IMG/VR virus record: IMGVR_UViG_3300045988_062993
Location: 1-52,879 of that record
DNA length: 52,879 bases
Reading direction: 5' to 3' (one strand)
From: a virus
Within the stretch, counting starts at the first letter, position 1, and every line of letters starts with the position of its first letter. The notes below the pieces were generated by a model that saw nothing but the letters and a program-made list of their open reading frames with translations, was not told the DNA's origin and did no database searches. Made by a program: the position numbers and the translations under genes. Below are positions 1-31,735 of this stretch, piece after piece.

Positions 1-40
1 GCAGCACCGCCAAGCCGCGCGGACACCGGACGCTGCCGGA
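1..40. repeat. Terminal direct repeat: nt 1..40 are identical to 52840..52879 (circular-contig overlap, or a shared VR/TR segment)
   Basis: Exact 40-nt match gcagcaccgccaagccgcgcggacaccggacgctgccgga at both window ends. Confidence 0.95.
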
Positions 41-1634: not shown

Positions 1635-1877
1635 TTAGTCCTCCTGTCCATCATCAAAGGTCAAGCGACCGGCTTCGTCATAAAAGAAGTACGGAAGCCC
1701 TTCCAGTTTTTCCAGTCTTTTTCCGGTGGCTGCCGCATCGGCGGCAGAGCCTTCCTTTTTCAGTGTCTTATCCGGCAACAGTTCCTTTGCCCAGTTCGGC
1801 ACATCTTCATCGATCAGCTTATAGGTTGTGCCGTCAATGACAAGGTAGGTGGCTCTTACGATTTTTACGTTTGCCAT
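1635..1877 (-). CDS. Hypothetical small tail-module protein (80 aa)
   Basis: Track ORF, co-directional and tightly packed with its neighbours. No motif recognised. Confidence 0.5.
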   Translation of the reverse strand: MANVKIVRATYLVIDGTTYKLIDEDVPNWAKELLPDKTLKKEGSAADAAATGKRLEKLEGLPYFFYDEAGRLTFDDGQED

Positions 1878-2125
1878 TCCGTCTTACCTCCCAGAGAGAG
1901 CGTCACCACGCCGCGCCCATCGTCCGAAGCGGTCAACTTCAAAGCGTTCAGGTTTGCTTTGATGCCCTGCACCTGCAAGGTTTCGCCCACCACTTTTGCG
2001 ATCTGTTCCGGGGTGGCGCGGTAGAGATCGTTCTTTCCGTCTGCTCGTTTCCGAACCACGATCACATAGTCCGCACTTGCAAACGTTTCTGCCAAGGCTT
2101 TGTCTGCCAGACTTACCATGCCCAT
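1865..2125 (-). CDS. Hypothetical small tail-module protein (86 aa)
   Basis: Track ORF with GAAGGAGG upstream of the ATG at 2125. It overlaps the stop of the radical SAM gene (2113). Confidence 0.5.
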   Translation of the reverse strand: MGMVSLADKALAETFASADYVIVVRKRADGKNDLYRATPEQIAKVVGETLQVQGIKANLNALKLTASDDGRGVVTLSLGGKTEWQT

Positions 2126-3441
2126 TTCTCTGCCGCCTCCTTCTCAATGGCTTTCAACTCTGCGGCTTCATCCTCACCGATCAGACGCGCCACTTCCTCG
2201 TAGGGAAGATTTACCTTCTTCGGTGCGGTATCGCCCAGAGCTATACTGCGCATATTGCAGTACCAGCACACAGCCAGCACACGCGCCTTGTGAACTTTGC
2301 AGATTCCGGTATATCTGCGGTTTGCAGTTCCGAACATTTCATAGTTCAAACCACTGCACCAGCCGCACCCGGAAGACACCGGGCAACGGATGCACTCTTC
2401 CGTGGACTGGGATTTCATGGTGATTGCATCCAGTTCTTCCTTCACCTGCCGCTGCTGATCCGTGGCATACAAACTGCCCGCCTGCACATTGCCCAGACAC
2501 ACCCGATTTGCCTTTTCTTTGCCAATAGAGATAGGCGCATACCGTATGCAGGGATACGCGGACCCGTCCGGGGCAAAACTTAGCATTGAGCCGGTTCCGC
2601 CGCAGAAGTTTCTGTCGTTCTGTTCTGCATCGCCAATCTGCTCATCCAGCATGGCAATCGCCACGTCCCAGCCGTTCTTGATAACGTACTGCGAAACCTC
2701 TTTCAGCTGTTTATACAGTGCCTTGCCGTCCTCGTCCGTGTACATCGGTTCGTAGGCGCAGTTCCCGGCAATGTGCCTGCACCCGGCATCCAGCATCATT
2801 TTCATACTGGATGCAATGTACTGGATGGAGCCGGGCACGAAGGTCATTTTGCTGTTGAGCCAGCCATACTTCCGCTTGCCGTCCTGGAATGCTGCCCACG
2901 CGGTAGAAAAGCTGCCGTTTCCGTCTTCGTCGATGCGGTAACGGTCGTGCAGCTCTTGCACGCCATCAATGGACACTGTAACCGACATAAGATCATGGTA
3001 CTTTTCCAGCAGGTGCTGCGCCGCCGGGGAGCGCCACAGTCGGCCATTCGTGGCAAAAGAAATGCGCGTGAACGGTCCCAGCGGGATTTCCCGCCGGTAG
3101 CACTCCGAAAACCAGTAGTCGCAGATATGCTCGATCAGTTCAGCTTCCAGCAGCGGTTCCCCGCCGATGAAGTCCAGGATCATGGCTTTGGTGTCCCGGT
3201 TCACAAAATCGGATGTGCTATCCTCGTACAGGTTCAGGATGTAGTCCACGATTTTCTTTCCGGTTTCCAGCGTCATTTTTTCGGTAGACTTGTGGTGCTC
3301 ATAGCAGTATGAGCACCGCAGGTTGCAGGCGTTTGTGATCTGGAACGTGATGTTTCGGCAGATGCTTCCACACTCCCGTCTGTCCCGGCCATATAAGCGC
3401 TGGACGGTATTCCCGTAGTCCTCATACTTTTTCGTTCTCAA
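2113..3441 (-). CDS. Radical SAM / SPASM-domain peptide-maturase-like enzyme
   Basis: CX3CX2C motif (ITNACNLRCSYCYE). C-terminal SPASM-like cysteines are CGGTGSMLSFAPDGSAYPC and CIRCPVSSGCGWC. The track start at 3471 is TTG. An internal TTG at 3441 has a GGGAGGAGG RBS 9 nt upstream and is preferred. Confidence 0.85.
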   Translation of the reverse strand: MRTKKYEDYGNTVQRLYGRDRRECGSICRNITFQITNACNLRCSYCYEHHKSTEKMTLETGKKIVDYILNLYEDSTSDFVNRDTKAMILDFIGGEPLLEAELIEHICDYWFSECYRREIPLGPFTRISFATNGRLWRSPAAQHLLEKYHDLMSVTVSIDGVQELHDRYRIDEDGNGSFSTAWAAFQDGKRKYGWLNSKMTFVPGSIQYIASSMKMMLDAGCRHIAGNCAYEPMYTDEDGKALYKQLKEVSQYVIKNGWDVAIAMLDEQIGDAEQNDRNFCGGTGSMLSFAPDGSAYPCIRYAPISIGKEKANRVCLGNVQAGSLYATDQQRQVKEELDAITMKSQSTEECIRCPVSSGCGWCSGLNYEMFGTANRRYTGICKVHKARVLAVCWYCNMRSIALGDTAPKKVNLPYEEVARLIGEDEAAELKAIEKEAAEKWAW

Positions 3442-3724
3442 CGGGGTGTACCTCCTCCCGCTCAAAGTCAAAGTGCACGATCAGGTTCGGGTTTTCTTCC
3501 GGGTCGATGTACCGCGCCAACACCTTGTCCTGCACCATCTTCAGCTTCATCTGCGCTTTCCGGCACAGTCCTGCGTAGTAGTGCAGCATATCAGCGATCA
3601 TCGTATTTGCGCCAGCGTTCAGCTGGCGGGACAGAATTGCCATCAGTGCTTCATAGGACTGTGCTTCGTAGTAGGCACGCTCCACAGCTTCACTTTCCTG
3701 TGTGGTGATTTTGATATTCTCCAT
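3422..3724 (-). CDS. Small helical protein (100 aa), candidate accessory protein of the CXXX-repeat modification system
   Basis: ATG at 3724 follows TAAGGAG. It lies between the repeat protein and the rSAM gene and overlaps the rSAM start. Confidence 0.6.
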   Translation of the reverse strand: MENIKITTQESEAVERAYYEAQSYEALMAILSRQLNAGANTMIADMLHYYAGLCRKAQMKLKMVQDKVLARYIDPEENPNLIVHFDFEREEVHPVENEKV

Positions 3725-3734
3725 GGTACACTCC

Positions 3735-4310
3735 TTACTGTGCATCCCGTTTCGGCAGCTTGTCCGCCGCCTGACGGTATCTTGTGCGAACCTGATTCAT
3801 CTTGACCATGGCCGAAACCATATCGTGCATATCTTCTGTTTCGCTCAACCGCAGCAGTTCGATCAGCACAACAAGCAGGTGCCACACGGAAAAGAAATCC
3901 ACATCGTCCTTGCACTCATACTGAGCCGCCTTGACGAACGGTGCAGGATTACACTCACCTCTTCGGACAGGGTGTGCCGCAAAGTTGAACGTCCGGGCTG
4001 CCAGACCATAGCCCATCAGGTAAACCCGGTCTTCGGCTGCTTCTTCGCCGCAGGCTGTCACTACAGACCGAGCTACAGTGATGCAGTATGCACACCACAC
4101 ATCGAACTCATCTTCCGTGTTCACCATGAACATACCGGCACATCCGATGCACCAGAAAGCTTTCTCCATGCCGGGCGGAGTATCAGCAAGAAGCCCCTGC
4201 CAGTCCTCCGGGTTTACTGTTTCGTGTGTCTGGATTTTCAGCAACGGAAGGTTTTTTGTGTACATCTTCTCGCTTCTTTCGTCATTGTTTTGCTCAAATG
4301 CTACGTTCAT
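3735..4310 (-). CDS. Hypothetical protein (191 aa), candidate accessory protein of the CXXX-repeat system
   Basis: ATG at 4310 follows AAAGGAG with a 7-nt spacer. It is located immediately downstream of the Cys-repeat gene. Confidence 0.6.
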   Translation of the reverse strand: MNVAFEQNNDERSEKMYTKNLPLLKIQTHETVNPEDWQGLLADTPPGMEKAFWCIGCAGMFMVNTEDEFDVWCAYCITVARSVVTACGEEAAEDRVYLMGYGLAARTFNFAAHPVRRGECNPAPFVKAAQYECKDDVDFFSVWHLLVVLIELLRLSETEDMHDMVSAMVKMNQVRTRYRQAADKLPKRDAQ

Positions 4311-4325
4311 TTCGCTGCTCCTTTC

Positions 4326-5240
4326 TTATTTCCACAGGAATCCAGAGCATGATGTGCATCCACCAGAACAGCTTCCGGAACACCCACTACAACCTCCGTC
4401 GCAGTTATCTGTGCATTGCGCTCCACAATGCGAATTGCAGTCTCCTTCGCAGCTGTTTACGCAAGACTGTTTACAGTTTGCGAAGCAAGCAACCCCTCTG
4501 CAACTATCCTGACAGCTTGACGCACAATACGAATCGCACTTATCAACGCACCGTCCTGTGCAATCATCTGCGCAAGTGGCGTCGCAGCTACCGGAGCAGC
4601 TACCGGAACAGCCATCACAGCCGCCTTTGCATCCTCCCTTGCAGCCCGTCTTGCAGCCATTGGTGCAGTCATTTGCACAGCTTGCCGTGCAGGTCGTGTT
4701 GCAGGTGTTGGTGCAGTTTCCTAAACAGGTGTTGCTGCACGACCCCTGGCAAGTTCCCCTGCAAGTAGCCGTGCAGTCATTCGCACAATTTGCCCGGCAA
4801 GTTCCTACACACCCTCCGCCACAGCTGCCGGTGCAGCTGGTACAGGACGTGTTGCAGCCATTGGAGCAAAGCCCCGTGCACTGCCCGCTGCACCCGGTCG
4901 CTGTTGCAGTTTCCGGGATATTGCTCAGTGTGCTTACCGTTGCCGCTGCTTGCGCAAGCCCCGATGCTGCAACTTGGTCTCCCCGCGCCGGTGTCGTTGC
5001 ACCGCCCTGAACGGCATCCACCAGACGGGTGATTTTCTGGATGTGTTCTGCATCCACGCTCACGCCATCCGCCGGGGTCACATTGTACTGGTACGCCGTT
5101 CCCCTATATGCCGCCATGCTGCCAACAGACTGTCCCTGTGCGGTGCCTTCTGTCTTGCCGCGCCGACCGATCTCTGCGTCTATCAGGCTTTTCAGAGCGA
5201 GAAAATCTTCGTTGGAAATGAACTGTCCTCTCTCCGGCAT
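4326..5240 (-). CDS. CXXX-repeat (Cys every 4th residue) tail-associated protein, the putative rSAM substrate
   Basis: The N-terminal ~115 aa contain no Cys. The C-terminal ~188 aa (about nt 4326..4895) carry 47 Cys, mostly with C-X3-C spacing (CTGLCSNGCNTSC...CANDCTNGCKTGCKGGC...). The RBS is AAGGGGG. The gene directly follows the tail fibre gene. Confidence 0.85.
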   Translation of the reverse strand: MPERGQFISNEDFLALKSLIDAEIGRRGKTEGTAQGQSVGSMAAYRGTAYQYNVTPADGVSVDAEHIQKITRLVDAVQGGATTPARGDQVAASGLAQAAATVSTLSNIPETATATGCSGQCTGLCSNGCNTSCTSCTGSCGGGCVGTCRANCANDCTATCRGTCQGSCSNTCLGNCTNTCNTTCTASCANDCTNGCKTGCKGGCKGGCDGCSGSCSGSCDATCADDCTGRCVDKCDSYCASSCQDSCRGVACFANCKQSCVNSCEGDCNSHCGAQCTDNCDGGCSGCSGSCSGGCTSCSGFLWK

Positions 5241-5244
5241 CCTC

Positions 5245-6642
5245 TCACCCCCTTACTCGGACACGGATGCGGCGTTCATCTGTCCGGTCATCGCCTTCCA
5301 CTGCATAGCCAACAATGCACTCTGCTGGAGCAAACTCCCCTGCGCAGGCTGCCCGGCCAACGCCTGGCGTGCCCGAAGGCAAAATTAAATCCCCAGTCTT
5401 CACTCTGCCGGTCACGCGCACTCTGACGCGCCCTGCAAGGGAAACGGGGATATACTTTTCTATGTTAGCTTTGAAGTTGTCGTCTTTCTCGTCCGGCGTA
5501 TCGCCGCCAATCAGGTATGCATATTCGTCCGTGTGCACGCCTACAACGCGATCCATCTTTCCAATCGCCTTGATATACCGTTCTGTCTGACTGCTCACAT
5601 CCAGCGCAATGATATCTCCCGGCTTGGTATCGCACCCACGGGGAAACCATTCGGCGTAGTCGTTATAGACCGCACCATACACTTTGCGGAAGTTCGCCGT
5701 GCCATCAGCGGTGATGTAGTAGGTGTTGTCGCCACCGAAGTATGTAGGCTGCTGGAACCGCACCGCGCCCGTAAAGGTGCCGCCAGACGTTGGCATTGCA
5801 CCCAGATTCGCCAGCGCCCGTGTTGCGGTCTGGGCACCGGTGCCGCCGCGAGAAATAGGGAACGTTCCGCTGGTCACATCATCCGCGCTGTGCTTGTGAT
5901 CCTTTGCTGCGGCTGAAATATCCGCAGCGGAAATGTTGTGCGGGTTCTTTGCTGAAAGGTGTGCGATGAAGGCAGCGATTGCCGTGCGAATCTTCCGCAG
6001 GATATTCCCCAGCTTTTCGCCGGAAGCGATATTCTGCACATCGTAGGAGCCATCCGTCTTCATAATGTAGTCATTTGAGAACACCGGCTGTTGGTTCGTC
6101 GGGGTAACATTGGGCACATTTCCCAAACCAACCTGCTCAGCCGTAACATGGTGCGGATTGTTGTGGTCAGTGATGTGGTCTTTCAGGTCTTGCTTGCTGG
6201 CATACCCGGAATACTCGCCCAGCGTTGCCGTCACCTGCTCTGCATCACCAACCGCAACTACCATGTGGAAGGTTTCCTGTACCGTCATGTCGCCGCTCTC
6301 CGGCGGCACAACGGCGGCTTCGTTTCCTGCATTGGCATACGCATACAGGATTTCTCCATCGTTCGGGTCGTTGGCGAAGATACCAATTTCCCGGGCAATC
6401 AGCTTTGATTTCAGACCGCTGTTCGTGTAGGTGGATTCCAGCACGGCGCAGTTTGCGGACAGCTCAATGCTGTTGATCTGCATATTGGCTACCAGATGCA
6501 CAAGATTTTTCAGGTCACGCGGTTTTTCCGGCGCAACGCCATCGCCCAGCGCAAATTTCGTGAAATTGATTGCGGTGCCATTCAGAGCTTTCACGATCAA
6601 AGCTCTGCCCGCATTGGTCAGGATCAAACTTGGAAAAAACAT
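5245..6642 (-). CDS. Tail fibre protein (P2 gpH-like N-terminus)
   Basis: The N-terminus MFFPSLILTNAGRALIVKALNG..FTKFALGDG is typical of the tail-collar/fibre N-domain. His-rich HxH-type segments are present (DHNNPHH, KDHKHS). The C-terminal beta-domain reads ...VYNDYAEWF...PVSLAGRVRVRVTG. Confidence 0.8.
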   Translation of the reverse strand: MFFPSLILTNAGRALIVKALNGTAINFTKFALGDGVAPEKPRDLKNLVHLVANMQINSIELSANCAVLESTYTNSGLKSKLIAREIGIFANDPNDGEILYAYANAGNEAAVVPPESGDMTVQETFHMVVAVGDAEQVTATLGEYSGYASKQDLKDHITDHNNPHHVTAEQVGLGNVPNVTPTNQQPVFSNDYIMKTDGSYDVQNIASGEKLGNILRKIRTAIAAFIAHLSAKNPHNISAADISAAAKDHKHSADDVTSGTFPISRGGTGAQTATRALANLGAMPTSGGTFTGAVRFQQPTYFGGDNTYYITADGTANFRKVYGAVYNDYAEWFPRGCDTKPGDIIALDVSSQTERYIKAIGKMDRVVGVHTDEYAYLIGGDTPDEKDDNFKANIEKYIPVSLAGRVRVRVTGRVKTGDLILPSGTPGVGRAACAGEFAPAECIVGYAVEGDDRTDERRIRVRVRG

Positions 6643-6654
6643 CGTTTCCCCCTT

Positions 6655-7290
6655 TTAGTCTGTCAGGATGTTCCCGTCTGCGTCCAGAAGGGCGTTTTCG
6701 TCTGCATCTACAAGCCAGCTGAATACGCTCTCTCCGTCTGCCGTCACGCCAGACCACTTTCCCACGGCAACCGATGCAAAACCAAAGAACAGCTTGTGCA
6801 TTTCCTCTGTGGAAAGCTGCAACATATCCAGATGGGCACTTGCCCGCTTTACATGGCTGAGAATGTCCAGCATCTCCTCAATGTCGATGGGGCCTTCTGC
6901 CTTGATTTTGATTCGGAAACACCCGGGCGTTCCTTGATACTCAAACCATTCCCGCACCGTCGCGTCGCCGTACAGGTCACGCATCACATCTTCCACCGCC
7001 GCTTTCGTGCCAACGGTCATATAATAAGGTAGCGATGCTTTTACAAGCCGCCGTTTCGTTTCAATGTCGTAGTCCTGCCTGTAGCGCGGTGCCCGGAACT
7101 GTGTTGCCAGAATATCCAGCAGTTCATCCGATGCCTGGTCGATACCTGTATAAACCTTCGCATTGTCTGCAAAATCTAAGATCAGAAGTGTCAGATCATG
7201 CCATGCATCCGATACAGACTGCACCCATTGCTGTTCTGCAACGCTTTTCGGTAGCAGGTCGGTCAGCTGGGCATTGCGAAGATCAGTCAT
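6655..7290 (-). CDS. Baseplate/tail protein I (P2 gpI-like)
   Basis: Its position follows Baseplate_J. The motif LLP.S.....W..... and the conserved gene order fit gpI. ATG at 7290 has a GGAGG RBS. Confidence 0.7.
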   Translation of the reverse strand: MTDLRNAQLTDLLPKSVAEQQWVQSVSDAWHDLTLLILDFADNAKVYTGIDQASDELLDILATQFRAPRYRQDYDIETKRRLVKASLPYYMTVGTKAAVEDVMRDLYGDATVREWFEYQGTPGCFRIKIKAEGPIDIEEMLDILSHVKRASAHLDMLQLSTEEMHKLFFGFASVAVGKWSGVTADGESVFSWLVDADENALLDADGNILTD

Positions 7291-8434
7291 CTTCCAATCC
7301 TCCGTAAACAACCTTGCAGGTGGTCAGCTTCGGAATCTCAGCGCTGCCAACCACAACGTCGGTCGGCGCGGTGATTTTCACTTTCTTTGCTCCGGCGTTT
7401 TTGATTTGTGCAATCAGTTCCGCCGGGTCAATGTCCCTGCCCATGGTGCGCTGCCACACCTTGTAGTTTTCAATGGCTTCATTTACTGCATTCTGTACCG
7501 TGACAGCGATTTTCGATTTGCTGCGAGCAATAGTATAGGTCACGTCAATGCTGTACTCGATCTCGGTCGGGGCTTTGCAGTTCACATAGTCCGTCATGGG
7601 GCGGCGTGCATCATCACGCAGATTTTCTTCCATGCTCTCACAATCGCTTTTGCTCGGCAGGGTTCCGTCCTGCAATGTAAAATAAATATCCACCACGCAA
7701 GGTGATGGACTTTCCACTGAAACATCTTTCACATCGTTCCGCCATGCCTTGGCGAAGTATTCATACGAATCCGGCGGACCGGCACAGCTGTATGTAGAGG
7801 GCACCAGATATGTTCTCTCCGTCAGCGAATCATCGCTTTCAATGTCGGTGCCGCCGCTGCTGGCGGTAATGTTCACCGCTGATGCAACATAGGGAATGGG
7901 GTCCACCAGCTGATTGATCTGCCCTTCCTCAATGCCAGACGATGCCGCGCCTTCCTCTGCGGCTTCTGCTTCCACGTCCGCATACTGCGAACCGGGCGCG
8001 ATTTCCGCATAGTCCATCGTGGCAAAATAAATACCGTCCTGCGTTCTAACGCGGGTCTTCGCCGGAATGCCTACGGCACCGGGTTGTTTTGCATCCGCCA
8101 GAGTAAACCGGATCGTCACCTTTGCTTTTTCTGCCGGCCGCCGGGTCAGGCCGTAGTTTCCGGCCAAATCGTCCAAATCATCGTGTGCCGAATATTTCAG
8201 CAACATCCGTTTCGGGCCAGCATCAACGTATTGCAGGATTTGATATCCAAGCAGCGTCATAGCTTTCAGCACCAGCGCTGGGACACTCGCGGGATAAATA
8301 ACCGGTGTCTGCCCGGTCGCGCCCTGCATGGATCGGCTGAATCCGTTCTTTGTCAGTTCTTCAACCTCCTTCATGGTCAGGTTGTCGATAAAACTGATAT
8401 CCGGCAGGTCTTTAAGCTGGGCAATTTCAGACAC
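7283..8434 (-). CDS. Baseplate protein J (P2 gpJ-like)
   Basis: Its size, its order between gpW and gpI, and Baseplate_J-like sequence support the call. GTG start at 8434 with a GAAGGTGG RBS. Confidence 0.8.
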   Translation of the reverse strand: MSEIAQLKDLPDISFIDNLTMKEVEELTKNGFSRSMQGATGQTPVIYPASVPALVLKAMTLLGYQILQYVDAGPKRMLLKYSAHDDLDDLAGNYGLTRRPAEKAKVTIRFTLADAKQPGAVGIPAKTRVRTQDGIYFATMDYAEIAPGSQYADVEAEAAEEGAASSGIEEGQINQLVDPIPYVASAVNITASSGGTDIESDDSLTERTYLVPSTYSCAGPPDSYEYFAKAWRNDVKDVSVESPSPCVVDIYFTLQDGTLPSKSDCESMEENLRDDARRPMTDYVNCKAPTEIEYSIDVTYTIARSKSKIAVTVQNAVNEAIENYKVWQRTMGRDIDPAELIAQIKNAGAKKVKITAPTDVVVGSAEIPKLTTCKVVYGGLEDD

Positions 8435-28378: not shown

Positions 28379-28421
28379 GACACTCTAGCCGGGTTGCACC
28401 GCACAAAGCAGCCCAGCCCCA
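28379..28421 (+). repeat. Intergenic hairpin repeat, copy 2
   Basis: GACACTCTAGCC-GGGTTGC-ACCGCACAAA-GCAGCCC-AGCCCCA. Confidence 0.7.
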
Positions 28422-28476
28422 TACCTGGCACACCGCCGGGACCATTTGAGAACTGAATAACAGGAGGTTTTACACC

Positions 28477-29328
28477 ATGAGAAACAACGATCTGATTGCA
28501 ACCGCCGTTTGTGCCCAGTACACCCCCGAACAGCTGCACAAGCTGGCCGCCCACTACTACACCGCCGACGAGATCGCCAGCGCCGCCGCAAAAATCATTG
28601 TGGAGCCGGGCGAAGACGGCACCGCACCCGATCCGGTGGAGATTGCAGAAGAAACCCTTTGCGCCGCTCTTTTCCACACGTTCGACGGCTGGAAAAGCCC
28701 CAGAAACGGCGGGCTGAGCGTCAAGCGCGGCGAAAAGGCCGTGATCCGCTGCAAGCTCTGGAAGTACAAGGACAGCCCCAAGCCCGAAGACCTGCCCGCC
28801 GACGCTGACCCGCTGACCCGGGCAGCCGCTGAGCAAGGCGGCGGTGACTACTACATGACCACCGCCTACCTTTTCGGACGTTGGCAGGTCGAGAAGCGCG
28901 ACCCGAAGAAACCCGCAGAAAAACGCTTTAAGTCCCTTGATGACATCCGGGCCTATAACAAGATGCTGGCCGACCAGCGCAAAGCCGCCAAGGCTGCCGC
29001 TGCCCAGCAGGACAAGCCCCAGACCGAACCGGCGACCGCCGAACAGCCCGCCCCGGCTCCCAATCAGGAAGCAGTGCCCAGCGTGGCCGCACTCAAGCAG
29101 GCAGAACGCAAGGCAAAGCGGGAATTTATGGCCGTGTCCGAAGAGGACCGCCCCGCCCAGGCGAAAGCGCTGGCAAAGTGGCGCGATACCCGGCAGGCCG
29201 TCGCAGACGCAGAGAGCGCACCGAAGACCGCCGCACCCGCACCCGAAGCAAAGCCCCAGACCAAAGCAGCCCCCGCCGCCAGCGCAGACAGCGCCCCGGC
29301 ATACTGCGAACAGACTTCTTTCTGCTGA
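28477..29328 (+). CDS. Hypothetical protein with a weak ArdC-N-like ssDNA-binding motif and a low-complexity Ala/Pro/Lys tail
   Basis: FDGWKSPRNGGLSVKRGEKAVI resembles the W...G..V+KGEK signature. RBS is CAGGAGG. Confidence 0.55.
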   Translation: MRNNDLIATAVCAQYTPEQLHKLAAHYYTADEIASAAAKIIVEPGEDGTAPDPVEIAEETLCAALFHTFDGWKSPRNGGLSVKRGEKAVIRCKLWKYKDSPKPEDLPADADPLTRAAAEQGGGDYYMTTAYLFGRWQVEKRDPKKPAEKRFKSLDDIRAYNKMLADQRKAAKAAAAQQDKPQTEPATAEQPAPAPNQEAVPSVAALKQAERKAKREFMAVSEEDRPAQAKALAKWRDTRQAVADAESAPKTAAPAPEAKPQTKAAPAASADSAPAYCEQTSFC

Positions 29329-29332
29329 ATGG

Positions 29333-29375
29333 GATACCCTAGCAGGGCCGCACCCAGAAAAGCGGCCCCGCCCCA
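29333..29375 (+). repeat. Intergenic hairpin repeat, copy 3 (compensatory stem changes)
   Basis: GATACCCTAGCA-GGGCCGC-ACCCAGAAAA-GCGGCCC-CGCCCCA. TT/AG in copies 1, 2 and 6 is replaced by CC/GG, which keeps the pairing. Confidence 0.7.
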
Positions 29376-29429
29376 CACCCGGCACCCCGCCGGGACGATT
29401 TGAAAATTGAATAGCAGGAGGATTATACC

Positions 29430-30014
29430 ATGAAACTTTCTACCAACTTCACCCTGTTCGGCCTCAATGTCAAGGCGATCCAAGCCTATCTCAAGGAGCA
29501 GGCAAAGGACCGGCGCGGGGTTCGCATCACCTGCCGTGGCGATCTGGTCTATATCATCACAGCATACACCGCGTTCAAGCTGCCCTCTGTCCTGTATGCC
29601 GACGTGATCCAGCCCGTGACATTCCGCGAATGCCCCGCCGACGGCGTGACCATCATTTCCGCCCAGTATGGTTTTGAGGTGGAAGAGAACGCGCCGGATC
29701 TGGTGGACATCTTCAAGCGCCACGCCCCCAACGAAAAGCCCGTGGAGCGCACGCCGTTCTTGCAGGACATTCCCACCGGCAAAAAGAAGAGCGGCCTTGC
29801 ACGGCTTTTCCACATCGGGACAACGCCCATCTTGATAAATGCCGACTACGACAGCATGGTGAACCCGGTGCAATTCACCTATCACGGCACGACGCGCGGC
29901 TATTCCCCCGTGTACGCTGTCAGCGCCAGCGATCCGACGATCTCCGTCATCATGCTGCCCATCAAGCCCACCGCAGAAGTGGAAACGCTCTGCAAGAAAA
30001 TGTTTTCCGAATGA
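29430..30014 (+). CDS. Hypothetical protein (194 aa)
   Basis: Track ORF with a CAGGAGG RBS. Confidence 0.6.
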   Translation: MKLSTNFTLFGLNVKAIQAYLKEQAKDRRGVRITCRGDLVYIITAYTAFKLPSVLYADVIQPVTFRECPADGVTIISAQYGFEVEENAPDLVDIFKRHAPNEKPVERTPFLQDIPTGKKKSGLARLFHIGTTPILINADYDSMVNPVQFTYHGTTRGYSPVYAVSASDPTISVIMLPIKPTAEVETLCKKMFSE

Positions 30015-30125
30015 CCCGCAAGGCCGACGGCATCCCGCCGCCGCTGGTGCAAGCCCAGCCGCCCCGCCGGGGCGGGCGCTCATGGGTCCACACCCAGACA
30101 CAACAGAATAACAGGAGGTTTTACC

Positions 30126-30626
30126 ATGTCTTGCATTCAACTTTCCGAAAAGCACATTGCCACCGTCGCTCACGGTCTGGCATTCATCCTCAACGGGGCC
30201 GGCGGTATGTGCCACCTTGCCGCATCCTACGAGCTGCCGGAGTTGTCCGACGCTCTGAGCGCCTGCCGATATCCGCACGACTTTCTCTTTGATGACCGCA
30301 AGATTTACGCCGTTCTCTACAAGCTGAACGATGCCGCATACACTGGCCGCTACCACTTGGAGACAGCCGACGCCGAAGATTTTCCCACCATGCCGGCCAT
30401 CTTTCCGCACCTGCTCCATCTTCTCGACTGGGATGCAGGGCGCTATACAATCGACCGCGATTTTTACGCATTCACAAAGCTGCTGGACAGTTTCATCTAC
30501 CAGTGCAACGAAGATGCAACCCGGAACAACCCCGTTCTAAAAGCTCTTTCCGGCACTTCCCGTGCACTGTATGCGTTCATTGTCCAGAATGCCGCCGAAT
30601 ACAACAACGCCGAATGGATCATCTGA
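30126..30626 (+). CDS. Hypothetical protein (166 aa)
   Basis: Track ORF with a CAGGAGG RBS. Confidence 0.6.
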   Translation: MSCIQLSEKHIATVAHGLAFILNGAGGMCHLAASYELPELSDALSACRYPHDFLFDDRKIYAVLYKLNDAAYTGRYHLETADAEDFPTMPAIFPHLLHLLDWDAGRYTIDRDFYAFTKLLDSFIYQCNEDATRNNPVLKALSGTSRALYAFIVQNAAEYNNAEWII

Positions 30627-30635
30627 CCCGCCCCG

Positions 30636-30676
30636 GACACCTCAGCAGGGCCGCACCGTAAAGCGACCCCGCCCCA
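30636..30676 (+). repeat. Intergenic hairpin repeat, copy 5
   Basis: GACACCTCAGCA-GGGCCGC-ACCGTAAA-GCGACCC-CGCCCCA, with one stem mismatch. Confidence 0.65.
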
Positions 30677-30760
30677 GCCCGCAAGGGCCACACGAAAACG
30701 CGAACCCCCTACCGGGGAGAGTGAAACGCTTTGAAAACTGAATATTTGGATGTTTACACA

Positions 30761-31690
30761 ATGGCTATTATCAACGAATCCGCCGCCCGTCTGGCAAAGC
30801 AAATGCGCTCTTTCGATGACTACAAGGAAGGCAGCGCCACCGCCAGTTACAACGCCCAGTGCGCCGAAGCCGCCGCGATTCTGGAAAAGGTCAAGGCAAA
30901 ATGTGCCACGGATGAACAGCGGGAGCGTGCCGAATACCTGTATAGCCGGTATTGTTCCGTTCTGGCTGAAGCCATCAACCGGGACAACGAGATCGGCACC
31001 CGGTGCCCGTCCGTGCTGGTCTGCGGCGCCAGCAACTTCCCGATCCGCAAAAAGGAAAAGCAGATTGCAGCGTGGGACAAGAACATGGAGAACTTCCGCA
31101 AGGCAGACCACTATTTGGATATGCTCAAGCGTGCCCACACGCTGGCTGTTAAATCCGATGATCCCGAAGTGCTTGATTTTCTCCGGTCAAAGCTGGCCGG
31201 ACTGGAGGAAGCGCACGCGCTCATGGTGTCCGCCAATGCCTACTACCGCAAGAACAAAACGCTAGAAGGCTTTGAAGGCATCCCCGCCGATACCATGGCA
31301 TGGATCACCCGCCCCGGCGTGTATCTGCCCGGTGGCCGCAACGGTGACGGTTCCCCCCTGGCTTTTTACGGCAAGCCCTTCCCGACCTACGAACTCACAA
31401 ACAGCAACGCCAACATCAAGCGAGTAAAGCAGCGTATTGAAACGCTGGAAGCTGTCAAAGCATCTCAACCGATTGAAGAGGAACACGACGGCTACACCTA
31501 CCGTGAGAACGCCGAAGCAATGCGTGTTCAATTCCAGTTCGACGGCAAACCGGACGACGAAACCAGGGCACTTCTCAAGCGCAACGGTTTCCGGTGGGCA
31601 CCGTCGCAGGGTGTCTGGCAGCGTCAGCTTAACGACAACGGCAAGTATGCCGCCCACCGCGTCATGGAAGCTCTGGACGGCCAGCAGTAA
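30761..31690 (+). CDS. DUF3560-like protein
   Basis: The C-terminal ...LLKRNGFRWAPSQGVWQRQL matches the DUF3560 signature as I remember it. ATG at 30761; the track start at 30731 is TTG. Confidence 0.6.
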   Translation: MAIINESAARLAKQMRSFDDYKEGSATASYNAQCAEAAAILEKVKAKCATDEQRERAEYLYSRYCSVLAEAINRDNEIGTRCPSVLVCGASNFPIRKKEKQIAAWDKNMENFRKADHYLDMLKRAHTLAVKSDDPEVLDFLRSKLAGLEEAHALMVSANAYYRKNKTLEGFEGIPADTMAWITRPGVYLPGGRNGDGSPLAFYGKPFPTYELTNSNANIKRVKQRIETLEAVKASQPIEEEHDGYTYRENAEAMRVQFQFDGKPDDETRALLKRNGFRWAPSQGVWQRQLNDNGKYAAHRVMEALDGQQ

Positions 31691-31693
31691 AAC

Positions 31694-31735
31694 GGATGCT
31701 CTGACGGGGTTGCACCGTAAAGCAGCCCCGCCCCA
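31694..31735 (+). repeat. Intergenic hairpin repeat, copy 6
   Basis: GGATGCTCTGAC-GGGGTTGC-ACCGTAAA-GCAGCCCC-GCCCCA. Confidence 0.7.

Follow-up and report, generated by a model that had tools for sequence, protein, structure and literature searches.

The window, meaning the whole 52,879-nt stretch of virus record IMGVR_UViG_3300045988_062993 that was analyzed, comes from a very common Faecalibacterium prophage, a temperate phage of myovirus type whose host is the strict anaerobe F. prausnitzii (SL3/3 prophage). Its gene order is baseplate J, Tail_P2_I, fibre, a four-gene cassette, a DGR target gene and lysis genes. All four cassette ORFs, which a preliminary description of this DNA had listed as co-oriented and packed, were present on the minus strand at the positions given there, with gaps of -20 to +15 nt and a Shine-Dalgarno sequence on each. 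The features are as follows, in the direction of transcription.

6655..8434, minus strand: baseplate genes, Tail_P2_I-like (6655-7311) and Baseplate_J (7283-8434), which tie the cassette to the tail module; phrog_48 and phrog_6, with Pfam labels on identical loci
5245..6642, minus strand: tail fibre, 465 aa, directly upstream of the target; Pfam Phage_tail_fib, phrog_7037 (3e-36), R2-pyocin fibre motif
about 5248-5757, minus strand: C-terminal ~170 aa of the fibre, Peptidase_G2-type intramolecular chaperone domain (PF11962; phi29 gp12, 3gqh)
4326..5240, minus strand: target protein, 304 aa, with an N-terminal helical domain, a CXXX Cys-repeat domain and a short aromatic tail
4893..5240, minus strand: N-domain of the target, aa 1-116, helical and Cys-free, specific to phage-type CXXX targets
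4347..4892, minus strand: CXXX repeats of the target, aa 117-298, with 47 Cys spaced in C-X3-C register
4326..4346, minus strand: C-terminal tail SGFLWK and stop
3735..4310, minus strand: p191, 191 aa, lineage-specific accessory gene, no family match
3422..3724, minus strand: p100, helical, 100 aa, homologous to TIGR04116 (CXXX repeat peptide modification system protein) but diverged from it
2113..3441, minus strand: 442-aa maturase of radical SAM/SPASM type, in the phage clade of the CXXX-repeat maturases
3304..3327, minus strand: CX3CX2C radical-SAM cluster motif (C39, C43, C46), invariant in the alignment of phage relatives
2299..2604, minus strand: SPASM region, seven Cys (C280, C298, C350, C353, C359, C362, C381), invariant among phage relatives
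1635..2125, minus strand: two short ORFs of 86 and 80 aa, co-transcribed and lying between maturase and DGR target, with overlapping junctions; conserved in close relatives and in locus L031
1..1632, minus strand: DGR target gene next downstream (from translation), 5' part only, as the window edge cuts it; 579 aa in relatives

The maturase starts at a TTG codon with GGGAGGAGG just before it, and the radical SAM motif and C-terminal SPASM Cys cluster attributed to it earlier were both found complete, as C39-x3-C43-x2-C46 and seven SPASM Cys; the latter imply two auxiliary Fe-S clusters. Pfam matches were Radical_SAM, Fer4_12 and SPASM. The best family was TIGR04115, the CXXX-repeat maturase (3.2e-90, 303.2 bits, full length over model positions 2-359 of 359), as the preliminary description had anticipated, and the exact protein is named in nr as 'radical SAM peptide maturase, CXXX-repeat target family'. 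The score lies under the curated TIGR04115 cutoff of 350; with 475, 442 and 410 bits, three clade-mates (L052, L054 and L082) do exceed the trusted cutoff. PapB was the next-best family at 153 bits, and an identity as anaerobic sulfatase maturase was rejected, anSME reaching only 54 bits against 303 for TIGR04115.

The 47 cysteines of the target are confined to residues 117-298, with zero in residues 1-116, and 41 of the 46 inter-Cys gaps equal 4, that is, are exactly C-X3-C (four others are 3 and one is 5), a count that none of 10,000 shuffled versions of the C-terminal domain reached; the earlier figure of about 40 was thus borne out. The X positions are mainly G/S/T/N/D/A, close to the Gly/Ser/Thr/Asn/Asp composition first described, and one or more acceptor-type residues (S/T/N/D/E) occur in 93% of the repeat units. 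The CX3D/CX3N-type motif of ranthipeptides, which had also been invoked, does not fit here, since position i+4 holds the next Cys throughout. The target passed the CXXX-repeat model TIGR04114 (26.3 bits; cutoff 20), in line with the proposed NCBIfam assignment, and it matched TIGR04117 at 34.7 bits and phrog_6085 at 1e-17. Repeat number differs by lineage, from 13 to 65 Cys, with a maximum of 145 Cys in one 669-aa ORF; one relative (P0025) is a natural in-frame 68-aa deletion variant of the repeat domain, and the aromatic tail (FLW/FLF/FMW/WAVF) is common to most Faecalibacterium-lineage relatives. Synonymous to non-synonymous differences from three close relatives were 32:13, 48:14 and 20:1, and purifying selection acts on the repeat region. 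Among 17 unique close variants, 0 of 47 Cys positions varied, whereas of the 140 non-Cys positions 25 did (Fisher p = 8e-4); Cys positions stay constant, and X positions and repeat number change.

The cellular CXXX-repeat system, defined in silico, comprises TIGR04114/TIGR04117 targets, the maturase TIGR04115, a second maturase (TIGR04119) and the small protein TIGR04116; consistent with the preliminary description, neither published chemistry nor a phage role for it was found in the searchable literature. Both versions share tandem C-X-X-X repeats (X2 Gly-rich, X3 S/T/G-rich), a homologous rSAM/SPASM maturase and a homologous small accessory protein beside the enzyme gene. p100 is a remote homologue of the family's small system protein: comparing 43 phage small proteins with 30 cellular TIGR04116 members by hhalign gave 95.6% (E 1.3e-8, 92 columns) versus 0.5% for the reversed control, and two intermediates (L067 and L050) showed weak direct TIGR04116 matches. 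A p100 homologue or similar-sized ORF lies directly upstream of the rSAM gene in 58 of 73 phage-type loci, and here the two genes share a 20-nt overlap. Its start is an ATG with AAGGAG ahead; a longer ORF (107 aa from 3745) is possible but has no comparable ribosome-binding site. A target-p100 fusion, found in one contig only, supports direct binding. The p191 protein had no match in NCBIfam, Pfam, PHROGs or PDB. Faecalibacterium loci keep it, its conservation in Gemmiger is marginal (67.5%), and elsewhere it is replaced or absent; it does not belong to the general system as had been supposed. TIGR04119 was rejected as its identity (hhalign 0.1-0.3%).

Phage and cellular versions differ in several respects. 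In the tree, a single split places the 33 non-redundant phage-type maturases on one side and the 25 cellular ones on the other, with no exceptions. The second maturase TIGR04119 is absent from the phage version, which may therefore make a different product than the cellular one. A TAT signal is present on every cellular target of Bacteroidota type that was examined; phage-type targets have in its place a helical domain of ~110 aa that is unrelated to the TAT leaders; phage systems have one large target (158-669 aa), whereas cellular ones have short peptides, often tandemly duplicated; and the phage cassette lies inside tail operons. Target, small protein and rSAM stay together in 35 of 35 viral loci and in all phage-type genome loci with enough DNA. 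By sequence homology, the cassette is a phage-specific branch of this so far in silico modification system; it is new as a phage variant, the cellular system being already known in silico.

The placement between a tail fibre and a putative hypervariable gene was confirmed, the fibre lying on one side and a DGR-diversified gene on the other, the latter whole in a 98% relative (L003) together with VR, TR and reverse transcriptase. For the 89 upstream neighbours drawn from 33 non-redundant loci, the annotated PHROGs among the top 25 were all baseplate, fibre, tail or structural, and the tail context holds in siphovirus (TMP-Dit-Tal) and other myovirus-type architectures; it is general to the loci and to both tail types. 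We favor, at a probability of roughly 0.55, a phage-adapted CXXX-repeat rSAM modification cassette in a late tail operon, the product of which would be stapled and virion-borne. Counted against this reading are the sub-cutoff TIGR04115 score, the missing TIGR04119, the restriction of the target-p100 fusion to a single contig, the fact that AF2 gave no confident model for the repeat region, and the position itself, since the stretch after tail fibres is a classic and common site for non-structural cargo genes.

The cassette could itself be such prophage cargo, with a RiPP-like product that is secreted or released by lysis (a bacteriocin, signalling or protective factor) outside the virion, and with the N-domain as a large leader or follower peptide. 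The RiPP-maturase family of the enzyme and the frequent use of the post-fibre region for cargo fit this, as do the large protein-like leaders of other RiPP classes and an N-domain without structural-protein homology. However, phage targets have no signal peptide, and the cassettes examined showed no recognisable leader protease or exporter; no promoter- or terminator-like site lies inside the cassette stretch, the genes adjoin the tail genes directly or overlap them at the same GC content, and the tail context is invariant over myo- and siphovirus architectures. The repeat region also extends, at 145 Cys, far above known RiPP size. We therefore regard cargo as unlikely.

The N-domain bears on the same question. 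Its profile matched 276 representative clusters, and Cys repeats were present in 102 of the 113 N-domain clusters of at least 150 aa. Its AF2 model (pLDDT 66, pTM 0.59) has helices at 10-27, 42-46, 64-78 and 92-106 and no PDB fold match. The first ~115 residues had been described as Cys-free and as resembling a fibre-associated domain: the former was observed, and no known tail or fibre attachment domain was matched by sequence or fold, which counts against the virion-borne reading. Counting for it, two multi-domain relatives have fibre-like layouts: a CBM-like domain, N-domain and repeats in P0097, and N-domain, repeats and a C-terminal globular domain in P0160. In L082 the N-domain is C-terminal to the repeats, and both this order and the embedding in multi-domain, fibre-like proteins argue against the cargo reading.

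The Cys-repeat protein might instead be a transient tail-assembly factor, a fibre chaperone or scaffold that is modified, then discarded and absent from the mature particle. Genes right after the fibre often encode fibre assembly chaperones, and the cassette co-occurs strongly with a fibre ending in the intramolecular chaperone domain (PF11962 in 7 of 10 members, 1e-6; phi29 gp12 3gqh, 0.0065). Yet that fibre already carries its own chaperone, the cost of an rSAM enzyme of its own and of modifying up to 65-145 Cys would be hard to justify for a discarded protein, and the CBM-like and globular fusions resemble functional distal parts. In L130, moreover, the Cys-repeat protein is the final tail gene before the lysis genes, with only a 216-aa gene preceding it. 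A discarded factor thus seems quite improbable.

As to chemistry, the nearest characterised maturase relatives all form Cys thioethers (PMC11002830). PapB, of the freyrasin ranthipeptide system (NF047865), is an rSAM/SPASM enzyme colinear with the phage maturase over 4-328/330 and forms six S-C-beta Cys-Asp rings by serial cross-linking of short repeated Cys motifs (PMC11002830). Several such Cys-containing motifs occur in both substrates, but the phage enzyme's 153 bits are far under the PapB cutoff of 340, the motif is C-X3-C rather than C-X3-D, and the substrate is a ~300-aa, 47-Cys protein in a tail context rather than a short peptide. The best solved-structure relative is the SCIFF maturase CteB (PDB 5wgg, 3e-21, over residues 26-394; TIGR03974), which shares the rSAM and SPASM architecture and makes a Cys-Thr S-C-gamma thioether (PMC11002830). 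The alignment begins at CteB residue 94, so the phage enzyme lacks the N-terminal RRE domain (CteB residues 1-93); it scores 86 bits on TIGR03974 (cutoff 425), and the SCIFF substrate has six Cys rather than a long ladder. Homology to QhpD (quinohemoprotein amine dehydrogenase gamma-subunit maturation; TIGR03906) is detectable at 76 bits versus a cutoff of 453. This rSAM/SPASM enzyme introduces several Cys-to-Asp/Glu thioethers into a protein subunit retained in a larger assembly, not a free peptide (PMC11002830), although the substrates are unrelated and what results there is a subunit of an enzyme in the periplasm rather than a phage protein.

Alternatively, the ladder could be mainly a metal- or Fe-S-binding (metallothionein-like) or disulfide domain, the rSAM enzyme performing a non-cross-linking modification or having another substrate. 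The Gly/Ser-rich CX3C/CX2C arrays read like metal-binding sequences, TIGR04115 has no known chemistry, and the absence of TIGR04119 shows that the pathway differs from the cellular one. Against this stand the strict co-inheritance of target, small protein and enzyme over hundreds of lineages, the use of Cys thiols for thioethers by PapB, CteB and QhpD alike, and the lack of any other Cys-rich candidate substrate encoded nearby in the window; disulfides are also unlikely to arise or last in a strict anaerobe's cytoplasm and habitat. This explanation, too, seems quite improbable.

The favored reading of a stapled, virion-borne product draws directly on gene content, family membership, phage clade, tail-module context and Cys-register selection. 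The target, with its N-domain and 47-Cys ladder, would be expressed late in the anoxic, reducing host cytoplasm; a strict-anaerobe host suits an O2-labile enzyme and would explain the use of cross-links other than disulfides. The p100 protein, which would be translationally coupled to the enzyme, may be the recognition or chaperone partner presenting the target, a role proposed since no RRE domain is fused to the maturase. The rSAM/SPASM enzyme would then modify the Cys repeats processively, most probably converting thiols to intramolecular Cys-S-to-carbon thioethers onto neighbouring S/T/N/D/G; this is an analogy to PapB, CteB and QhpD, as the searchable literature yielded no experimental chemistry for any TIGR04115 member. 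The resulting thioether ladder would be a redox-insensitive, protease-resistant rod or spacer. The helical N-domain, substituting for a TAT export signal, may dock it onto the fibre or baseplate apparatus, although the autoproteolytic chaperone domain ending the upstream fibre makes a simple picture of binding to the fibre C-terminus uncertain. The product would leave the cell within the virion, as a rigid tail accessory fibre or adhesin, and not by export. In short, the phage-encoded radical-SAM enzyme may chemically staple a virus tail protein.

The four genes of the cassette encode the 304-aa Cys-repeat protein (the target), a 191-aa protein (p191), a 100-aa protein (p100) and a 442-aa radical SAM (rSAM)/SPASM enzyme (the maturase). 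They occupy window positions 2113-5240 on the minus strand and are encoded within a tail morphogenesis operon.

Genes of the cassette and its neighbours, in gene order (window positions)
7283-8434, minus strand: baseplate J
6655-7311, minus strand: Tail_P2_I-like protein
5245-6642, minus strand: tail fibre, 465 aa
4326-5240, minus strand: Cys-repeat target, 304 aa
3735-4310, minus strand: p191, 191 aa
3422-3724, minus strand: p100, 100 aa
2113-3441, minus strand: radical SAM maturase, 442 aa
1865-2125 and 1635-1877, minus strand: two overlapping small ORFs, 86 and 80 aa
1-1632, minus strand: 5' part only of a large gene running off the window start, the DGR (diversity-generating) target, 579 aa in relatives

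Residues 1-116 of the target (the N-domain) contain no Cys, and residues 117-298 contain 47. The 46 inter-Cys gaps comprise 41 of four, four of three, and one of five, and 41 gaps of four were not reached in any of 10,000 shuffles of the repeat domain. Synonymous to non-synonymous changes in the repeat region against three close relatives were 32:13, 48:14, and 20:1; across 17 unique close variants, none of the 47 Cys positions varied, versus 25 of 140 non-Cys positions (p = 8e-4). The repeat region is genuine coding sequence under constraint and its Cys register is under selection. The Cys-repeat target and rSAM cassette noticed in the preliminary description are confirmed. Elsewhere in the window, a positive AT-skew anomaly at 28400-31700 marks a plus-strand gene block, a strand switch in an otherwise minus-strand prophage; it is not a compositional oddity.

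The best NCBIfam model for the maturase was TIGR04115, 'radical SAM peptide maturase, CXXX-repeat target family' (E 3e-90, 303.2 bits, model 2-359/359), with a score below the curated cutoff of 350 bits and twice that of the next family. That second family was PapB (ranthipeptide, NF047865; 153 bits against a 340-bit cutoff), followed by CcpM, SCIFF/CteB (TIGR03974; 86 bits against a cutoff of 425), and QhpD. Three more distant members of the same phage clade, at loci L052, L054, and L082, reached 475, 442, and 410 TIGR04115 bits, above the cutoff, and in nr (GenBank) the exact maturase protein carries the TIGR04115 family name in a Caudoviricetes TPA record. Against the TIGR04114 repeat model the target scores 26.3 bits, above the cutoff of 20, and it partially matches TIGR04117. 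With TIGR04115 as the top full-length match and TIGR04114 passed by the target, the CXXX-family assignment first made from the sequence proved correct. The same description had named placement of the enzyme among anaerobic sulfatase maturases, with a substrate encoded elsewhere, as evidence that would count against it; that model (TIGR03942) scored 54 bits against a cutoff of 349, at rank 17, and the substrate gene adjoins the enzyme gene, so this identity was rejected.

The CX3CX2C rSAM motif (C39/C43/C46) and seven SPASM cysteines (C280/C298/C350/C353/C359/C362/C381) were invariant in the alignment. In Pfam, Radical_SAM and Fer4_12 scored above their cutoffs and SPASM was borderline (21.4 bits vs a gathering score of 21.5). 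The closest solved structure was the thioether synthase CteB (5wgg, E 3e-21), with an alignment starting at CteB residue 94, past the substrate-recognition (RRE) domain, and preceded by ∼25 residues in the phage enzyme; because it begins there, the phage maturase has no fused RRE, whereas CteB has one at its N-terminus. The CX3D/E motif of PapB-type substrates is lacking in the phage target, in which residue i+4 is always Cys.

Homologues of the target vary greatly in length and keep the repeat. Between viral lineages, Cys counts range from 13 to 65 with the register kept; most Faecalibacterium-lineage targets end in a short aromatic tail, and an in-frame 68-aa deletion variant is present in the window's own lineage. 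An N-domain profile recruited 276 clusters at E <= 1e-3, 96 of them at E <= 1e-10, from 1.84 billion representative proteins. At least six CX2-3C units were found in 102 of the 113 N-domain representatives of at least 150 aa, and the exceptions resemble fragments; the N-domain is thus accompanied essentially always by Cys repeats. Among these representatives, P0097 has a CBM-like N-terminal domain ahead of the N-domain and repeats, P0146 is a fusion of the target with a p100-like protein (one contig only), and P0160 places ∼230 aa of repeats and a ∼150-aa C-terminal globular domain after the N-domain, in a fibre-like layout. The order is inverted at the Brevibacillus locus L082 (9817-10716), with the repeats first and a helical domain C-terminal. 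Two further unusual targets were a 669-aa ORF with 145 Cys in a Tenericutes MAG (L081, 5120-7126) and a 394-aa ORF with 95 Cys (93 CX3C) that lacks the N-domain (L076, 4207-5388), next to a maturase that clusters phage-side in the tree.

AlphaFold2 (AF2) predicted a small helical bundle for the N-domain from 111 sequences (pLDDT 66, pTM 0.59), and the model of the full 304-aa target with 22 homologues was unusable (pLDDT 41.8). Foldseek of the N-domain model retrieved nothing from the PDB; its BFVD matches were all unannotated members of the N-domain family from viromes. One weak fold neighbour, short of significance, was the 200-aa BFVD entry A0A8S5UTL8 (Myoviridae sp. ctYA416), annotated 'Six-cysteine peptide SCIFF', which may be another mislabelled phage Cys-rich rSAM target. 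The target showed no likeness to known tail or structural proteins by sequence or by fold. Its role could be that of an assembly factor discarded before the virion is complete; this reading is disfavoured and we consider it quite improbable.

The small protein p100 matched nothing in direct searches of NCBIfam and other family libraries, and a single-sequence hhalign against one TIGR04116 protein was negative (1.6%). In distant phage loci, the maturase gene is directly preceded by a small gene whose product ends in the TIGR04116 motif W-x-[IL]-[DN]-F-x-T-x-E, and two such small proteins gave weak but full-length TIGR04116 matches. Profile-profile hhalign of 43 phage small proteins against 30 cellular TIGR04116 proteins reached 95.6% (E 1.3e-8, full length, 92 columns), with 0.5% for the reversed control; homology came to light only between family profiles, not single sequences, and supports p100 as a divergent, remote TIGR04116 homologue. 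For p191, searches of NCBIfam, Pfam, PHROGs, and PDB were all negative, and its candidacy as a TIGR04119 substitute was rejected (hhalign 0.1-0.3%). An Fe-S or Zn protein is ruled out by the lack of conservation of its Cys residues. It is limited to the Faecalibacterium lineage, with a marginal Gemmiger match, and its position in other phage loci holds zero to three unrelated genes. Because p191 is absent elsewhere, the minimal conserved set consists of target, small protein, and maturase.

To assess distribution, IMG/VR was scanned with the maturase, yielding 35 loci (59-98% identity); wherever a locus included upstream DNA, its genes ran in the order fibre (conserved C-terminal domain), N-domain/CXXX protein, p191 or a diverged counterpart, p100, and maturase. 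A genome-contig scan (one genome per species) with the maturase alignment as query recovered 192 relatives, of which the best 80 were sorted; an earlier scan with the single maturase protein as query had recovered none. The best 80 fell into two groups. Phage-type loci have an N-domain target and usually baseplate J or fibre neighbours, have neither TIGR04119 nor TIGR04116 by direct search, and occur in Faecalibacterium, Gemmiger, Oscillospiraceae, Lachnospiraceae, Vallitalea, Desulfosporosinus, Brevibacillus, and a Tenericutes MAG. Cellular-type loci, from Anaerococcus, Finegoldia, Peptoniphilus, Bacteroidota, Ignavibacteria, and Acidobacteria, combine TIGR04116 and TIGR04119 with targets that are short and often in tandem; TIGR04119 is either a separate gene or part of an rSAM fusion. 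One Slackia locus, which has a fibre-type neighbour and no N-domain match, was kept out of both groups. A neighbour-joining tree built from 70 non-redundant maturases contained a single split with 33/33 phage-type sequences on one side and 25/25 cellular-type sequences on the other.

The canonical cellular locus L002 encodes a TAT-signal CXXX peptide, TIGR04115 (630 bits), TIGR04119, and the small system protein TIGR04116 (91 aa), followed by genes called TatA/TatC-like from sequence resemblance. TIGR04119, the cellular system's own second, SPASM-type maturase, occurs in most of the cellular loci that include sufficient sequence, whereas no genuine homologue was found in the 33 non-redundant phage-type loci; the lone match, at phage-type locus L080, came from weak cross-matching of the SPASM part to the rSAM ORF. 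RRxF-type TAT leaders were found in all 21 cellular (Bacteroidota-type) targets examined, a set defined by 35 aa or more ahead of the repeats, whereas the phage target instead has an unrelated helical N-domain and no signal; a relationship of the N-domain to cellular target leaders was rejected (0.2%). In many Firmicutes cellular loci (L084-L123, e.g., L090, 7935-10127), the TIGR04115 rSAM and TIGR04119 are fused in a ∼730-aa ORF, and in Bacteroidota they are separate genes, with target arrays of up to five paralogues (L116). The rSAMs of jumbo Erwinia/Salmonella phages (∼25% identity to the maturase) belong to a distinct system without CXXX targets. In Erwinia phage Kwan (L129, 3984-7410), two adjacent rSAM proteins follow a 69-aa three-Cys peptide (…GTCNNTNN…YNCGGTCSW…), and the jumbo-phage rSAM pair may form a separate, undescribed phage RiPP-like system.

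The association with tail modules, which the preliminary description had drawn from this one window, is general. Across the 33 non-redundant phage-type loci, the products of the three genes preceding the cassette (89 proteins) were compared with PHROGs, and the annotated families among the 25 most frequent were all baseplate wedge, baseplate, tail fibre, tail collar fibre, tail, or virion structural. P0160 lies in a siphovirus module of TMP, Dit, Tal, a 650-aa gene, the target, and proteins of 109 and 445 aa, putatively the small protein and maturase by position and size, with a holin further downstream; P0146 follows Baseplate_J and Mu Gp48, shortly before a GH25 lysin. The upstream fibre in the window carries a C-terminal Peptidase_G2-type intramolecular, autoproteolytic chaperone domain (∼5248-5757, minus strand), with PF11962 in 7/10 members and the phi29 gp12 autochaperone as top PDB match, and across distant lineages the cassette co-occurs with this domain, not with the fibre N-terminus. 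Past the cassette, the two small ORFs at 1635-2125 (minus strand) are up to 100% identical in close relatives and gave no family match. The 'hypervariable receptor-binding gene' suspected there is real: 98%-identical relatives carry, after the two small ORFs, the 579-aa DGR target with its variable repeat, and next come a template repeat rich in Asn and a reverse transcriptase gene, although only the 5' part of the gene lies in the window. At the related locus L003 (9810-13230), the DGR target's variable repeat is C-terminal and the reverse transcriptase has a YADDF motif.

Within the cassette, gene junctions range from -20 to +15 nt, a Shine-Dalgarno sequence precedes every gene, GC content is that of the neighbouring genes, and no minus-strand promoter- or terminator-like site was found. 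With the tail neighbours, these features down-weight a 'moron' reading. That the cassette produces a RiPP cargo that is not part of the virion is likewise disfavoured, and we regard it as unlikely.

The window thus encodes a complete CXXX-family rSAM/SPASM enzyme with its cognate repeat target and small partner, and these three are strictly co-inherited. Universal adjacency, translational coupling, and the one fusion suggest that p100 would present the target to the enzyme, in place of an RRE. By analogy with its nearest characterised relatives, namely PapB (Cys-Asp S-C-beta), CteB (Cys-Thr S-C-gamma), an Asn-linked type, and QhpD (PMC11002830), the maturase would turn Cys thiols into thioether cross-links, a reading that also leans on the S/T/N/D/E residues in 93% of repeat units. 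The ranthipeptide CX3D motif invoked in the first description does not apply; because residue i+4 is always Cys, rings would run from i to i+1..3, or across repeats. As TIGR04119 is absent, the phage product may carry just a subset of the cellular modifications. A Cys array that binds metal, or is modified in another way, is disfavoured and seems very unlikely. For the thioether product, the N-domain would dock the modified ladder on the tail, so that it would exit as a virion part, with cellular versions leaving via TAT.

The host is strictly anaerobic, and the element is widespread. In the assembly collection, 7,918 blocks index the 80-aa protein whose gene is the second one downstream of the maturase. 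The contigs that carry it are large, bacterial, and laid out as in the window, with lysis genes and an integrase at the end; one such contig, FP929046.1, is F. prausnitzii SL3/3. Clusters at 90% hold 1,756 (maturase), 397 (p100), and 830 (p191) members, and the exact 304-aa target is absent from a collection of 15 billion proteins. The target gene is uncalled in FP929046.1 (L043, 6633-7568), and most database homologues (P0001-P0024 among them) are fragments or are frameshifted at the repeat start; the family is under-annotated because assemblers and gene callers systematically miss or break the repeat gene. Megablast of window 1-25000 matched no deposited phage genome, and the window is therefore not a named Faecalibacterium phage.

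We tentatively propose, with a probability of roughly 40%, that the cassette builds an rSAM-installed thioether 'cysteine ladder', which would serve as a tail rod or adhesin in phages whose hosts are strictly anaerobic gut Firmicutes. In this anoxic, reducing habitat, rich in proteases, the ladder would stand in for disulfides and would act together with a receptor-binding protein diversified by the DGR. Hundreds of lineages would carry it, among them one of the most prevalent F. prausnitzii prophages, and this would be the first case in which an rSAM enzyme cross-links a virion structural protein post-translationally. The searchable literature yielded no account of a phage CXXX system, and the phage-specific variant is new; the parent CXXX system, already known in silico, is biochemically uncharacterised and apparently has no published chemistry. 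The phage branch compacts it to three genes (target, small protein, and enzyme) with one large, readily detected substrate, which makes the chemistry directly testable. For engineering, a poly-thioether rod that is genetically encoded and can be tuned in length would make an attractive scaffold. The element is very common and its host, F. prausnitzii, is a keystone gut species. Covalent modification of a tail component by an rSAM enzyme would add a new type of virion maturation, and could explain how Cys-rich extracellular structures are stabilised without disulfides in the phages of strict anaerobes.
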